A stretch of 64,000 nucleotides of DNA from Octopus vulgaris (taxonomy: Eukaryota). Shown here one piece after another: positions 15,379 to 63,293 of this stretch. Position 1 is the first letter of the stretch. The number at the start of each line of letters is the position of its first letter. The notes under the pieces are model-generated. The model made no database searches and was not told the DNA's origin. It saw only the letters and a list, made by a program, of their open reading frames with translations. The position numbers and the translations under genes are program-made. Location: positions 16,244,001 through 16,308,000 of the forward strand of contig OX597825.1 of the NCBI GenBank assembly GCA_951406725.2, read 5' to 3'.

Positions 15379-16690
15379 CACGTGACCATGTCATGTGACC
15401 GACCAGTCCATCAAATGTAGTCACACATTGCTGGTCACAATGCGTTCGCATTGTTTTAGCCTTCGAATGACGCCAACAGCGAGCAGGCCAAAAGAAGAAA
15501 GAGTGAGAGAAAGTTGTGGTGAAAGAGTACAGCAGGGATCACCACCCCCTGCCGGAGCCTCGTGGAGCACTTGGGTGTTTTCGCTCAATAAACACTCACA
15601 ACGCCCGGTCTGGGAATCGAAACCGCGATCCTACGACTGCGAGTCCGCTGCCCTAACCACTGGGCCATTGCGCCTCCACACACACACATATATATTTGTT
15701 TGGCAAGATTTTTGATGTGAAGTCGTGTATTGAAACAGATATTGTTGTATTTCGGAATGGTCATTTTGCCAGTTTAGCCAATAAAAACACACGCACTATA
15801 TATTTGGTGTTACTTTGCTTCAGCGTTATTTATTTTTTACATTAATCTTAATCATATTTCGGCCAGAGTTCTTTCGTCACACTCCTGTGACCTCATCAGT
15901 GGTCCTTCGCTTTCTTCTTTCTTATTTGTTTGTCTCTTCTTACTAACCGTTAGCCATTTTGTATTTCTATTGTATGTGTCTTCATTTGTGCATGCGTATA
16001 TCTCTATGTGCGTCTATGTTTAGTTAGTGTGTGTGTGTGGGGGGGGAATGCCTGTAATATTTGTATCTCCTGTTTATATACGTTTGTGTAATTTGTTTTT
16101 GTTTTTGTTTATTCTTATTTTGTTTATGTGTTTACACCCACTTGCCCAAGGTGTCATGCAGTGGGACTGAACCTGGAACCATGTGGTTGGGAAGCAAGCT
16201 TCTTACTACACAGCCACGCCTGTGCAAAATTTGTGCAAAATATTTTAACACCAATGACTATGATTAATTAAAAGTAGTAGTAGTAATAGTAGTAGTATGG
16301 GGTGCATGTGTTGCAACAGTGTGTTGCTGCATCCACTGTTTGTTGGTGATTCCCCGCTACTCTCGGTGGATGACCCTTTTGCATCACTCAGGCAACAACC
16401 CTCCAACCCACGGATCTGTTTGGGTAGTCATTTCTGGCAAGGATTTTACAATGCTGGAGTGCAGATCCTACCTCAACCTCTTCTAGCCACTTTCTACGGC
16501 ACACGGAGGAAACATTGGGTTCATCCTTTGGCATGTCAGTCCCCCCACACAGTGCAGGACAGAAGAACTGGAAGTTATTATCACCTTCTACTGTAGATCA
16601 ACTAGCAAAGAGGTTGACGGGAGACTTGTCCTGAGAAATGCTATGTTTGTATACTATACTTAATGTTTTCTTTTCTGTTCTTCTTTTCAG

Positions 16691-25500: not shown

Positions 25501-25921
25501 AAGGCGGCGAGCTGGCAGAATCGTTAGCACGCCGGGCGAAATGCGTAGCCGTATTTCGTCTGCCGTTACGTTCTGAGTTCAAATTCCGCCGAGGTCGACT
25601 TTGTCTTTCATCCTTTCGGGGTCGATAAATTAAGTACCAGTTACGCACTGGGGTCAATATAATCGACTTAATCCGTTTGTCTGTCCTTGTTTGTCCCCTC
25701 TGTGTTTAGCCCCTTGTGGGTAGTAAAGAAATAGGTAATTCATCTGTCGTTACGTTCTGAGTTCAAATTCCGCCAAGGTCGACTTTGCCTTTCATCCTTT
25801 TCGGGGTCGATAAATTAAGTACCAGTTACGCACTGTGGTCGATATAATCGACTTAATCCGTTTGTCTGTCCTTGTTTGTCCCCTCTGTGTTTAGCCCCTT
25901 GTGGGTGGGTAGTAAAGAAAT
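25501..25921 (+). mobile_element. SINE B dimer (head+body, then body) with TSD
   Basis: Second unit begins at the aaagaaata-ggtaatttc junction; TSD atattgcggaa(a/c)gat. Confidence 0.85.
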
Positions 25922-35474: not shown

Positions 35475-35759
35475 CAAATGCACATACGCATACACGTTCT
35501 GAGTTGAAATTCCGCCGAGGCTGGCTTTATATATAATACATAACCAAGGCACTACAAAATGTATGACACATGTATAATAAATAGCAATATTGACGCTGAT
35601 AATTGTTTACTTCTGTGGCATAGATATCTCTGCCTTTAGGTTGCAAAATTTGCGAATTAGCCACCTGTATTATTTATAATCTTCGCTTTTACCGTTTATG
35701 AAATCAGCGTATGATTTCAACGGAGATCTTTACAAACTGACAAAACGAGATCCGTTTAA

Positions 35760-35855
35760 CCCTCGGCGCAGTGAGAGCTACTGATGAGCATTAAGATGCG
35801 TTAAGCATCAGAATGTGAAACCATCGGTGATCTAGCTCTCTCTGCGACCGTAGGG
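35760..35855 (+). ncRNA. Type I hammerhead ribozyme (near-intact)
   Basis: Stem I CCCT-CGG-CGCAG-t-GAGAGCTA pairs with TAGCTCTC-t-CTGCG-a-CCG-t-AGGG. Core CTGATGA (35781-35787). Stem II GCATT-aa-GATGC-gttaa-GCATC-ag-AATGT. GAAA (35817-35820). Short stem III closing on ATC, predicted cleavage after C35832; one C-A mismatch at positions 15.2/16.2. Confidence 0.8.
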
Positions 35856-35983
35856 GGCTTGTCTCCCTTGTCAGCTCATTAAGATAGGGGTTTTTGTGGC
35901 TATTGAGTTGATTAGTGCCGTGTTCACTTTAGTGATGTATACATACATACATACATACATACATACATACATACATACATACA

Positions 35984-36041
<58 letters not shown>

Positions 36042-36043
<2 letters not shown>

Positions 36044-37225
36044 AAATGGGTTAAGAACGCAAAACATCCGGACAACTAGGTGATACTTAAAGGAACAACA
36101 AAACATTCAGATAGACGATACAAAAAAAAAACAAGGATGAGTTATTCGAAGCTTTCTATCCTCAGTTAAGAACCAGATCATCCTCGCAATTTCGGCTGAT
36201 TAATCTTGAGATTGCGCCAATCTGGCCAGCCCCAAGGAAAAACTAAGCTAGGAGCATTAGATTCCTTGGAAGAAAGCATCAAATGTATACAAAAACAAAG
36301 ACGGAAAAACAGACAATGTTACACAAATATAATACAATAAATTCAATAAAAATAATAAAAATAATAACAGGACATAACAACAAGTGTCTTTCGACTGGGG
36401 AACTGAATTAAGCTGGCGCGTGTGGAACTCTGCCGTAATGCTTCATTTCGCGATCTTAGATGAGATGCTGGAGCTCCAGATTCGGTTATACCAAAAGACG
36501 TCATGGTTTTTATATTTTCGGTTAGGTCTGTTTGTCTGGGTACTTGGGGCGGCAATTGGATTTTGTAGCGTTAGGTGTTTAATTTGTTGTCTATTACAAG
36601 TTTTCTGTAACTCATGGTTGATTCTAATATGTCTGGATTTGGTTAGTCTTATCTTATGGTCTGGGATTTTATTATCTATTTTTTTTACAAGTGTGTAGTT
36701 TTTGTTGTGTTTGGTAAGGTTGTTATAATGAATCATATTATTACTAGTTGAGTTATAAGAGTTATTATTATTACCACTACGACTAGCATATTGGATTTTC
36801 TCACGGTATCCGTCCTTAGCTAAGGCTGAGTTATGATAATGTGCATGTATGTTGAATATATTTTCTTTGCGAGTAACCTGGATATTCTAGCCGAGATGTT
36901 ATTTACGCGTCTCCTAATTATAGATGGTGGATGATTAGATCCAATATTAATGTATTTTAGGTTCTTATTAGGTTTATGAAATGGTGCGTGTAGACAGCAT
37001 CCAAATCAAAAGTAGCATCTAAAAAGTTGATTCTACGGTATTTTTAAAACACTTTAATAGAGATTTTGTGTACTTTTCGTGCTGGACTTTGCTACATCTA
37101 TGTAGGAAGAATAATGCGTCCTCCCTGTATAGCCCCACCCCAATCAATCTTGGAATATATAATTGTATCTGGGATAGGATCCGCCTCAATAGATTCAGTT
37201 CGATCCTCTCCTACAAGGAAAAGGT
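36042..37225 (-). mobile_element. Degenerate Penelope-like retroelement (RT/thumb fragment plus 3' region)
   Basis: The minus strand translates, with frameshifts, VGLYREDALF (decayed YxDD), RINFLDATFDL and PFHKPNKNLKYINIGSNHPPSII...ISARISRL, the NFLD...KP...SNHP signature of Penelope RTs. Confidence 0.85.
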
Positions 37226-42882: not shown

Positions 42883-43751
42883 AAGGAGGTGAGCTGGCAG
42901 AAACGTTAGCACGCCGGGCGAAATGCGTAGCCGTATTTCGTCTGCCGTTACGTTCTGATTTCAAATTCCGCCGAGGTCGACTTTGCCTTTCATCCTTTCG
43001 GGGTCGATTAAATAAAGTACCAGTTTCGCACTGGGGTCGATGTAATCGACTTAATCCGTTTGTTTGTCTTTATTTGTCCCCTCTATGTTTAGCCCCTTGT
43101 AGGCAATAAAGAAATATATATATATATGTCTGTCTACATTTGAGAAGGCGGTGAGCTGGCAGAGACGCTAGCACGCCGGGTGAAATGCATAACCGTATTT
43201 CGTCTGCCGTTACGTTCTGAGTTCAAATTCCACCGAGGTCGACTTTGCCTTTCATCCTTTCGGGGTCGATAAATAAAGTACCAGTTTCGCACTGGTGTCG
43301 ATATAACCGACTTAATCCGTTTGTTTGTCCTTGTTTGTCCTCTCTGTGTTTAGCCCCTTGTGGGTAGTAAAAAAAAAAAGGTATTTCGTCTGTCGTTACG
43401 TTCTGAGTTCAAATTCAGCCGTGGTCGACTTTGTCTTTCATCCTTTCGGGGTCGATAAATTAAGTACCAGTTACGCACTGGGGTCGATATAATCGACTTA
43501 ATCCGTTTGTCTGTCCCTGTTTGAACTCTCTGTGTTTAGCCCCTTATGGGTAATAAAAAAAAAGATAGGTATTTCGTCTGTCGTTACGTTCTGAGCTCAA
43601 ATTCTGCCAAGGTCGACTTTGCTTTTCATCCTTTCGGGGTCGATAAATAAAGTACCAGTTTCGCACTGGGGTAAATGTAATCGACTTAATCCCTTCGTCT
43701 ATCCTTGTTTGTCCCCTCTATGTTTAGATCCTTGTGGGCAGTAAAGAAATA
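42883..43751 (+). mobile_element. SINE B tandem array (four units) within one TSD
   Basis: Two headed units and two headless units; tatagcaatacatttga on both flanks. Confidence 0.85.
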
Positions 43752-45171
43752 TATAGCAATACATTTGACGTGAAATGGCTTCAACTGAATATCGAGAGAT
43801 CTTACCATTTTGAAATTGTGTCGCTTGTCACTGTGATGGACCACATTGGTTTCAACTTTTGATACAACCCCAGTGCTCGATTGGTACTTATTTTATCGAC
43901 CTCAAAAGGATGAAAGACAAAGTCGACCTGGGCGGAATAAGAACGGAGATCGCAAAGGCGGACGAAACGCCGCTAAGCATTTTGTACGGCGTGCTAACAA
44001 TTCTTCCAACTCGTCGCCTTACTCTGATAAACAATATTGTAAGTTATGTTGTCGGTTGTTGACCACTTTTACACGCAATGTCTTCATCATATTCTTCAGA
44101 ATATAGCTCTAGAAAAACAAAAAAGGTAAAAGTAATTGAGAATCCAGACTTTGGCAACACGATACTAGAAGCCTTTACTATTGATATTCTGAAGATAATG
44201 ACAAAACAAAGTTATTTGTCAAATTATTATTTCTTTTTTCTTTCGGATGGAAAAAAAAAAGCATTAATACATCAGTTTCCAATATTGGTAAGTTGGCAGA
44301 GTCATTATCGCCTTAGACAAAATGATTAGCAGCCATTTCTTCCGGCTCTTTACGTTCTGAGTTCAAATTCTGCCGAGGTTCGACTTTGCCCCTCATCCCT
44401 TTCGGGGTCGATAAAATAAAGTACCAGTCAAGTACTGGAAACGGTGTATTCGACTAAGCCCTTCCTTCTAAAATTGCTGGCCTTGTGCCAAAATATGAAA
44501 TCAATATTATCGCGAAACCAAAGATGGCGAGCTGGCAGAATCGTTTCCTCGCCGAACAAAATGCTTAGCAGTATTTCTTCCGGCTCTTTACGTTCTGGGT
44601 TCAAATTCCACAGGGGTCAACTTTGCTCTCCATTTAAAAGGCGTCGAGCTGGCAGAATCGTTAGCATGCCAAGCAAATGATTAGCTCTATTTCGTCCGCC
44701 TTTACGCTTTGATTTTAAATTATAGCTGAGGTCCACTTTGCTTTTAGTCCTTTCGTGGTTGATAAAATAACACCAGTTGAATATTGGAGTCGATGTAATC
44801 GACTTACCCCCTTCCCTGATCTTTCACGCCCTGTGCCAAAATTTGAAACAAATATTTAGAATTTAAGTTCTACATGGAATAGGATATAATCAACTGAATT
44901 GAGCCTCAATATATTACTGGTACTTATAAACCGCTCATTTTGCAGCCATTTACCGATGTATATATACTTAGGTCGATTGCATCAATTGCACACCTTCCCC
45001 GCTCTTCTTTGCCGATTAATATATTTTTTAATGAAGATAATGAAATTGGTTATACTCGCCCCTCCTCTCTCCAAATTGTGTTTCTGTTATAAATATATTA
45101 TCATAAAAATGATTGCAGAAGGTGAAAGAAGCAAAAGCGAGTAGGATAAAACGGTTTGTGGTATATTTAGT

Positions 45172-48289: not shown

Positions 48290-48480
48290 TAGCCACTACA
48301 CACATTTTTTCTCTCCTTGTTTCTTTCCTTGCTTCTCTCCTTGTTTTTTCTGTGTCCCTTTCTGTAGAAGAGCGTAGGCTCGAAACGTAAAAGACTTTTT
48401 CTATTCCTGAGCGTTATACTTCTACATATGTTCGTTTTGTACACCACCTGTCTTCGTCTTTTGTTTTTTTCGTGAACTCT

Positions 48481-48483
<3 letters not shown>
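48290..48483 (+). mobile_element. Second copy of the Penelope-like repeat, with hammerhead-like motif at 48358-48393
   Basis: CTTT-CTGTAGA-A-GAGC-gtag-GCTC-GAAAC-GTA-AAAG; aligns by eye with the 53150-53410 copy. Confidence 0.6.
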
Positions 48484-48523
<40 letters not shown>

Positions 48524-48526
<3 letters not shown>

Positions 48527-49080
48527 AGGCGATCCAACGAAGCTACACGAAGAAGATAGCCTCTGTGCAGCATATAAGATACTGGGAAAGACTCAAGAGA
48601 TTAAAAGTCTATTCCTTGGAGCGTAGGCGAGAAAGATATGCCATAATATACATCTGGAAGATCCTGGAAGGAATTGTCCAAAACTTTGGCATCGAGAGTT
48701 ACACAAATGCCAGAACTGGGCGTCACTGCGTGGTGCCAAGGACTCCAAATTTGTCATCAAGATGTAGGACAAGATACTGTGATAGCCTCGGCTTCAGAGG
48801 GCCACAGCTCTTCAATATCCTCCCGAAGAACCTGAGGGACCTGCATAGGGTGGATTCGGATGTCTTTAAAGTAGGACTGGATCTCTTCCTGTCAGGTGTC
48901 CAGGATGAACCAACTTCACGGCAGGAGGTGCAGATGAGGGCAGCTGCATCAAACTCTCTCATGCACCAAATGGCAGTTGCTAAAAAGCATTCGTGAGGTA
49001 AAATCATGTAGCAACACCAAATGGCGGTGCCCCAGCATGGCCACAGCTCAAGAGCTGAAACTGGAAAACATAAACATAAA
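48524..49080 (+). mobile_element. 5'-truncated CR1-like LINE (ORF2 C-terminus and 3' UTR) inserted in (TA)n
   Basis: Open frame IEAIQRSYTKKI...YWERLKRLKVYSLERRRERYAIIYIWKIL...FRGPQLFNILP...FKVGLDLFL, typical of CR1-group ORF2 ends; tail ggcggtgccccagcatggccacagctc...tgaaac. Confidence 0.85.
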
Positions 49081-50819: not shown

Positions 50820-51104
50820 GATCTGGCGATCGTGATTTCAGTTCTTAGACAGAATAAAGAAACAGTTACCAGGGCAGCAAAAAATCTTACGAGTAATAAG
50901 GATCTAACATCCTGTTTGTAAAGGTAGAAACTCCGGGTTGATATACACATTCATTTCATTCTATTAAAATGTCTTATTGATGAGTTTAGTTTCCTTTTTT
51001 CTTTCCCTGATGAGAAGATTGGGACCTTTACCTTTTGACCGAAAGGTATAAAAAATAATATTTTGTAACTAAACACTTTCAAACTTGTATGATTTCAATT
51101 CCAA

Positions 51105-62170: not shown

Positions 62171-63293
62171 TTATATTAATTAGAAAATAATGATGGACTT
62201 TTGTGTTGCTATTAGATTCACACAAAAACATACACGGCAGATAGGTGTGATGAGACACTAATATTTGTATTAGGTTGGTTCAGGGTGATTGAAGCTGGTC
62301 ATGCGATCGGATATGCTGTAGATTTAGAGATATTCGGAGAAATGTGCTGTAAAGCGCAATTACTTCACAAAAACAGTTGAAACTTACTAAAATCATCTTT
62401 TATAGATTAACCCAGGGCGGCTGAAGCCTTTTCAGGTCGAACATCATTCAGTTAGGGCAATTAGAGACTATCTCTGAACTTCAGTTAAGTGTTATCGTAA
62501 AATGCTTCAGGGTCTGATTTTTTTCAGTTAGACACAGACAACAGTCCTTGGTTGCCGAATTTCCCTTCTGATCAGATGACCAGTTTTCCTGTATGAGATA
62601 TAACCTTACAAATGCCGTACAGGAATAAAACCTCTGGCATTATTCTTACTATAGATTGGTTTATTACATGCATATAGTTGTTTTTATATGGTGTGTGTGT
62701 GTATGCGATACTCGGAGTATTAATGCAATGTAGACGTGTGTGTATTTGTAATCTTCATTTATGTTATTTATCATGTTTACTGAAATATAATTGTTGATAA
62801 AATGATATATTAATACGATATCTGGTCAGTATACAGCTAATTCTATTTGGAATATTTCATATTTCTTGCCACCTATGCACAAAATTATATTCACACTTTT
62901 TATATCTCCACCTATATTAAACTATCTCCCCACTGATTTCATTTGATTCAGTACGTTGATTTTGATCTATAAACCAGTTGCAGCACTTCAGATATTTATG
63001 TAGCAGTAGAAGCATATTTATATTACATATTTGTATCACATATTCTTAAATGCATCAATTTATCATAGTTATATCTAAATACATCTGTCTTATTAATTTA
63101 TATCATATCACTTTGTTAATTAAATCCTTCTCTTTAATATACATAGATTAAATATTACATAAAATTAAATTAAAAATGATACGTTACAGATGGCCATATA
63201 TTTAGCTTTGCATAAGCTTGTATGTATATATATGTACATATATGTATACATAGGCAAATATATAACTATATATATAGATATAGATATAGATAC

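Follow-up and report, generated by a model that had tools for sequence, protein, structure and literature searches.

The hammerhead motif at positions 35760 to 35855 on the plus strand of the Octopus vulgaris window (the whole 64,000-nucleotide stretch of contig OX597825.1 that was analysed) is probably the ribozyme of an ∼345-nt non-coding, non-autonomous repeat family of the animal non-LTR retrozyme type. The locus would be an old, decaying monomer, roughly a unit in length with a short terminal repeat added, a relic that is in itself of little importance; the family it represents carries a long-helix hammerhead missed by Rfam. An earlier note, made from the letters of the window, had proposed an undescribed retrozyme or retroelement family among other origins, and the many copies, the ∼345-nt head-to-tail unit and the structure-restoring letters in relatives bear that proposal out. 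Retrozymes have been described in mussels, corals and salamanders, and the ∼345-nt family probably adds a cephalopod member to this known kind. The family was not found described in the titles and abstract openings of the papers listed on octopus or cephalopod ribozymes, retrozymes and viroid-like circular RNAs, a comparison made with papers and not with the repeat collections Repbase and Dfam.

The type I hammerhead core spans 35781 to 35832 on the plus strand, with cleavage predicted after C35832 (Table 1). CUGANGA, GAAA and NUH elements occur in order, and the earlier reading of the core as complete (CUGAUGA, GAAA, AUC) was confirmed. Its ∼20-bp bulged stem I and its two-part stem II with an internal loop were both recovered in the computed fold, where stem I comprises 20 pairs with bulges; the open helix I and helix II are formed in the window copy. 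A C-A mismatch lies at 15.2/16.2 (35821/35830), as had been noted. It is not the sole defect, as was claimed, since the 10.1/11.1 pair closing stem II is G-U in the window copy (G-C in most relatives) and an off-fold is predicted as well. As to a possible loop 1-loop 2 tertiary contact, stem I of relatives is distorted ∼8 bp up (35840 is A in 75 to 85%), and their stem II has an A-rich 2×2 loop. Position 35840 could correspond to loop 1, half closed in the window copy.

No other core in the window had both stem I and stem II of at least 4 bp, and BLASTN found no second copy there, in agreement with the single copy reported earlier. Cores with stems of this size occurred in 4 of 300 locally shuffled windows, and cores with stem I of at least 7 bp and stem II of at least 5 bp in none of the 300. 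The fold of the hammerhead stretch had a z-score of −5.87, with 0/200 shuffles as good. The search with Rfam hammerhead models that had been suggested as a check came back empty: nothing in the window reached gathering score, and no hammerhead family was among the 13 and 4 matches at E ≤ 10. This makes membership of the curated families less likely, not membership of the hammerhead class.

Table 1. Features of the hammerhead repeat and its surroundings, in positions of the window
Feature	Position	Strand	Basis or remark
Slightly over unit-length copy of the ∼345-nt hammerhead repeat	35581..35938	+	Family depth and joints; ends approximate
Long rod around the ribozyme, outer extension of stem I	35726..35885	+	Pair map; holds mismatches absent from relatives
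Stem I, 5′ strand	35760..35780	+	Fold
Catalytic box CUGAUGA	35781-35787	+	Motif order and shuffled-window comparison
Two-part stem II	35788..35816	+	5 bp, 2×2 loop, 5 bp, 5-nt loop
GAAA box	35817-35820	+	Sequence and relatives' letters
Stem III and loop, 12-nt near-palindrome	35820..35831	+	Fold; also complementary to the CUGAUGA box
AUC triplet; predicted cleavage site	35830-35832; 35832..35833	+	Position in hammerhead fold
Stem I, 3′ strand	35833..35855	+	Fold
Probable short terminal repeat of the unit start, running into the microsatellite	35911..35938	+	Joints 35938→35625/6 in 3/4 runs
(ATAC)n(TA)n microsatellite between unit and Penelope-like remnant	35939..36042
Broken Hydra-type Penelope-like element, not part of the unit	36043..37210	−	Remnants of the RT-thumb and of parts downstream, spread over several frames; microsatellite at its presumed 3′ end; approximate limits

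The motif had been placed in apparently unique sequence. A run search identified 10 runs from six studies and five organisms containing part of 35535-35938, and contigs of relatives from four public runs of four organisms, all DNA or unlabelled runs, were aligned to this stretch at 80% identity. The runs yielded 297, 257, 202 and 374 matching contigs, with almost all depth between ∼35600 and 35910 and no contig covering the whole stretch. With hundreds of matching contigs in each of the four runs, the description as unique is wrong. Nor is a stand-alone ribozyme supported, the window copy having lost pairs that are kept in its relatives. Over the ribozyme, the depths sum to ∼40 to 100 single-contig depths, which roughly hints at tens to hundreds of copies but is not a copy number.

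Behind 35910, a total of 78 contigs (20, 17, 15 and 26 per run) continued with one common sequence, the end of which resembles window positions 35581 to 35597 (13/17 letters, by eye). One contig of run X8 carried a joint from 35909 to 35604 with 39 letters between, giving 306 + 39 = 345 nt. The closed unit is drawn from this one contig and from short loose ends (median 16 to 32 letters), 24 of 492 of which were inspected, so that junctions with coding elements could be hidden. Further back-joints, 35875→35651 in X4 and X8 and 35730→35611 in X8, are compatible with a head-to-tail unit, their spacer lengths not being given by the contigs. Within the window, direct alignment of the two ends of the unit was matched by 57/1000 shuffles and is not significant alone, and a search for target-site duplications returned just 7- to 8-letter common words in microsatellite-like flanks. 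The contigs of the four runs showed no array with two ribozymes, repeat contigs being short and loose ends inspected as above. The window holds one ribozyme and no second one ∼345 nt away, so the locus is a monomer without the two consecutive ribozyme units of active copies.

The unit has a GC content of 0.417 (35581-35925) and a fold z-score of −5.22 (0/100 shuffles as good). Its longest internal stop-to-stop frame is 45 amino acids, the sole one of at least 40, and the unit is non-coding. Several characteristics of animal retrozymes are found here: a head-to-tail unit of 150 to 450 bp with a type I hammerhead, many copies, GC below 50%, no coding capacity and self-pairing. The family pattern gave 0 and 0 matches in metagenome and viral contigs. 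A looser pattern matched 82 and 21 loci in these collections, none of the 103 with stem I of at least 4 bp and stem II of at least 3 bp and none matching the unit by BLASTN, so that all were regarded as chance matches and rejected.

Two further features were seen in and beside the unit. A perfect 8-bp hairpin at 35689-35716 was the depth maximum in all four runs and may align on both strands or belong to another repeat too. Just upstream of the unit, 35494-35530 is a fragment of an abundant short repeat with ∼25 other matches in the window, which forms 185- to 186-bp tandem arrays at 25551-25906 and 43195-43756.

Comparison with relatives identified the window locus as a copy whose sequence has decayed, having lost pairs that relatives keep. 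At 15.2 (35821), U was found in 91 to 100% of relative depth, pairing with A16.2, so that the family consensus, a proposed check, restores the pair and the C-A mismatch is private to few copies. Position 11.1 (35816) was C in 74 to 83%, and 35779 was C in 63 to 70% with its partner 35834 G in 46 to 54%, the last two unphased. Common differences within the rod (about half of depth or more) were mapped by hand on the pair map from 40 of the 163 letter rows. Seven of these 15 differences close a window mismatch (35733, 35736, 35744, 35745, 35752, 35753 and 35821), two replace a wobble by a Watson-Crick pair (35816 and 35856), and two form the unphased two-sided swap 35779/35834. The rest were neutral (2/15), in a loop (1/15) or opened a pair (35840, 1/15). 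Throughout, the variants of relatives are unphased, and hairpin arms may align to the wrong strand, opposite-strand joints having been seen.

C>T and G>A changes accounted for 59 of 112 variable places in run X1. The first G of the GAAA box (35817) is catalytically essential; it was A in 17 to 22% of relative depth, a CpG-type decay, and the non-core CpG positions 35768, 35800 and 35850 had decayed in 9 to 36%. Given the dominance of these changes and the loss of a core G at the pace of non-core CpG, most copies look unselected. A loss of 36 nt from the outer rod (joint 35730→35767) was found in X4, X7 and X8. The X4 contig with this loss has the same depth (5.12) as the contig covering the unique upstream flank, which was present in X4 and X8. 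Equal depth would point to an insertion that is common to the species and decays independently in each.

With window letters, the predicted fold pairs ACUGAUG with 35822-35828, the stem III strand, with pair probabilities of 0.95 to 0.999 at three positions checked. For the monomer, this off-fold lies 10.7 kcal/mol below the hammerhead fold, and for a double hammerhead it is still ahead by 3.1 kcal/mol per copy. As the window copy has a single ribozyme, a dominant off-fold and no intact 15.2/16.2 pair, its cleavage is most likely poor or absent, and it is predicted to be unable to release a circle. With family letters (U at 15.2), stem III becomes a 12-nt palindrome, perfect where 35827 is A (29 to 54% of depth). 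The two-copy stem III helix then has −14.3 or −15.5 kcal/mol compared with −4.9 for the window copy, and the pairing of the stem III strand with the core box −9.6 or −5.6 kcal/mol. By rough nearest-neighbor sums made by hand, family monomers are off by ∼7 (G at 35827) or ∼3 (A) kcal/mol, and the two-copy form is on by ∼1 (G) or ∼5 (A) kcal/mol per copy. The probability of such stem III/core complementarity arising by chance was estimated post hoc at ∼0.01 to 0.04. These sums leave out tertiary contacts, magnesium and loop closure, so that a lock-and-dimer switch is suggested and not demonstrated; as energy models omit core and loop contacts, the strength of the off-fold may be overstated. In each of the four runs, 14 to 20% of relative depth had C rather than U at 35782 (core position 4), a change that would make the off-helix stronger and may reflect a subfamily or wrong-strand alignment.

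From these folds, the family can tentatively be pictured as a self-locking retrozyme, a possibility that we hold to be rather doubtful. Its 12-nt palindromic stem III would double as an anti-core strand and protect monomer circles from being cut again, tandem transcripts alone would cut, by way of a 12-bp double hammerhead, G and A subtypes at 35827 would differ in the strength of the lock, and a Hydra-clade element would act as mobiliser. By analogy with the cycle known for retrozymes, read-through transcription of tandem copies would give RNAs that are cut after the C equivalent to 35832, and a host ligase would close the unit-length RNA into a circle. On folding grounds, the stem III strand would pair with CUGAUGA in the monomer or circle and keep it off, and two copies would form the palindromic stem III of a double hammerhead, reopening the core. 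A Penelope-like reverse transcriptase would then, as in the known cycle, copy slightly over one round into DNA at TA-rich microsatellites. The discussion in PMC7229834 outlines a cycle of tandem transcript, cut after C17, ligation, reverse transcription and Penelope-like insertion, and a copy of over unit length is the product expected from reverse transcription of a circle in the cited part of PMC7761336.

The Penelope-like remnant beyond the microsatellite had 54 relatives at E ≤ 0.001, and TBLASTN matches lay at 36476-37180. The longest relatives retrieved show RWR/DKT-like motifs and a CxC-x5-C linker, followed by a C-terminal nuclease-like part (P0040). This order of motifs and linker ahead of a nuclease-like part is the Hydra pattern in the sections of PMC8557442 drawn on here, and Naiad was rejected as the identity of the remnant since its relatives show that pattern. 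By eye, its RT-thumb motifs resemble Hydra-1_Obim. Pfam gave no useful match for five remnant frames (one weak, E value of 0.093) or for 10 of the 54 relatives, and a word-index protein search gave 0 matches. The earlier note had placed the ribozyme on the strand opposite a Penelope RT fragment about 200 bp away. The strand is correct and the presumed 3′ end lies ∼190 bp away, but the remnants with protein matches are at 36476-37180.

A tie between ribozyme and remnant found no support in the DNA. Unit and remnant gave no BLASTN match, and shuffles did as well as their best local scores in 19, 219, 281 and 289 of 300 cases. The hammerhead lies on the opposite strand, beyond the microsatellite and with no sequence in common with the remnant, which does not fit a pseudo-LTR hammerhead of that element, expected on the sense strand within it and near its 3′ end. 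Hydra elements prefer (TA)n according to the same sections of PMC8557442, and the tail-to-tail layout can be explained by two independent insertions into one microsatellite. A Hydra element is a candidate mobiliser of the unit, not a demonstrated one. The remnant has, on the minus strand at 36130-36170 and ∼120 nt inside its presumed 3′ end, a degenerate core-like word, CUGAGGA ... GAAU (36159-36165, by eye), which is possibly its own decayed ribozyme (fold z-score, −1.85). At 62424-62585 (−), a Hydra-like protein is weakly matched in its C-terminal part (E value of 0.098), which may be another remnant.

Elsewhere in the window, a minimal hammerhead-like word was seen at 15860-15905 (−), with CUGAUGA plus one extra base, a 5-bp stem II, GAAA, UC after a short spacer, and a stem I of 3 bp, below the 4-bp filter for stem I. 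A TA/TG tract follows ∼170 nt further on, an arrangement also seen at Penelope-like 3′ ends. A CUGAUGA...GAAA word at 51007-51071 (+) is without supporting stems. The second half of a 201-amino-acid frame at 48391-48996 (+) resembles the C terminus of reverse transcriptases of the LINE type.

Other origins of the motif were weighed against the retrozyme assignment. Possible, if improbable, is an origin of the unit as the pseudo-LTR (3′ end) of an unseen autonomous Penelope-like element, left by a 5′-truncated insertion, with the back-joints representing partial tandems. Its core lies ∼130 to 160 nt from the 3′ end of the unit, which abuts a TA-type microsatellite, and the supplement of PMC8557442, in the rows seen, places Hydra-clade ribozymes mostly ∼100 to 250 nt from the 3′ end with a preference for (TA)n. 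However, family depth stops near 35600 in all four runs, relatives behind 35910 return to the unit start and not to new sequence, and this stem III or two-part stem II was in none of 26 Hydra ribozyme rows seen (by eye). A derivation of animal retrozymes from pseudo-LTRs has been reported, which favors this origin and lets the two readings grade into each other. It is very improbable that the ribozyme is a terminal part, antisense or inverted, of the Hydra-type remnant beside it. The ∼190-bp proximity, the tail-to-tail layout and the ability of Penelope-like insertions to carry inverted copies would fit, but shuffles and BLASTN revealed no similarity on either strand, the remnant has a degenerate core-like word on its own sense strand, and relatives run on behind 35910 into unit sequence.

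Domestication as a host-used self-cleaving RNA, raised in the earlier note, is unlikely in the extreme, since pairs present in relatives, 15.2/16.2 among them, are missing from this copy. In favor of it, the core boxes are intact, and the upstream-flank contig in X4 and X8 could mean an insertion common to the species; against this, the 36-nt rod loss on the X4 contig of flank depth would suggest independent decay of that same insertion. A chance resemblance to a hammerhead agrees with the empty Rfam search and is hardly conceivable beside the 0/300 shuffled windows, the improved pairing in relatives and the 0/103 unrelated pattern matches with both stems. The retrozyme assignment is retained as the probable one.

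Among known systems, the family is most like the animal non-LTR retrozymes, described in the cited sections of PMC7229834 (Cervera and de la Pena 2020) as self-paired units of 150 to 450 bp with GC below 50%, those of Mytilus galloprovincialis measuring ∼350 to 390 bp. It shares with them, and especially with the mussel units (compared by that partial description), the many copies of a short unit that is non-coding, self-paired and low in GC and that carries a type I hammerhead. Li, Clavereau and Pollet 2026 (10.64898/2026.07.22.740005), in the portion drawn on, describe retrozyme monomers as common derivatives of Penelope-like pseudo-LTRs, with an active element of two consecutive ribozyme units and mostly vertebrates sampled. 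The copies of the ∼345-nt family resemble those monomers as solo dispersed copies co-occurring with Penelope-like elements, and the window locus differs from the active elements of that portion in having no two consecutive ribozyme units.

Penelope-like hammerheads of the minimal and Hydra-clade types have short helices, with a helix I of 4 to 6 bp, and often an extra base after position 9, according to the parts of PMC4209133 and PMC8557442 cited. The octopus motif shares with them the type I topology, a palindromic stem III suited to dimers and a position next to a TA microsatellite. It differs in its 20-bp stem I within a longer rod, its two-part stem II and, in the family, a 4-bp stem III with a tetraloop; the motif listed for Hydra-1_oBim is a different sequence from the window hammerhead. 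In double hammerheads of newt/axolotl repeats and of other repeat types, a palindromic stem III allows a two-copy helix of 10 to 12 bp (PMC7229834 and Figure S8 of PMC3088659, in the parts cited). The monomer of such repeats is weak from its short stem III, whereas the monomer of the ∼345-nt family is predicted to be off from pairing of stem III with the core.

In most animal retrozyme circles, though not in some from mussels, the ribozyme is predicted to be free to fold, and for this reason the sections of PMC7229834 cited leave open how animal circles avoid cutting themselves. If true, a core-pairing stem III that is reopened by a second copy would be one bench-testable answer to this question, and one short sequence would serve as both lock and key. 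The octopus unit, known here as a DNA monomer, would then differ from most animal retrozymes in a stem III strand complementary to the core, and self-pairing would protect its circles as it does those of viroids and plant retrozymes but not those of most animal retrozymes.
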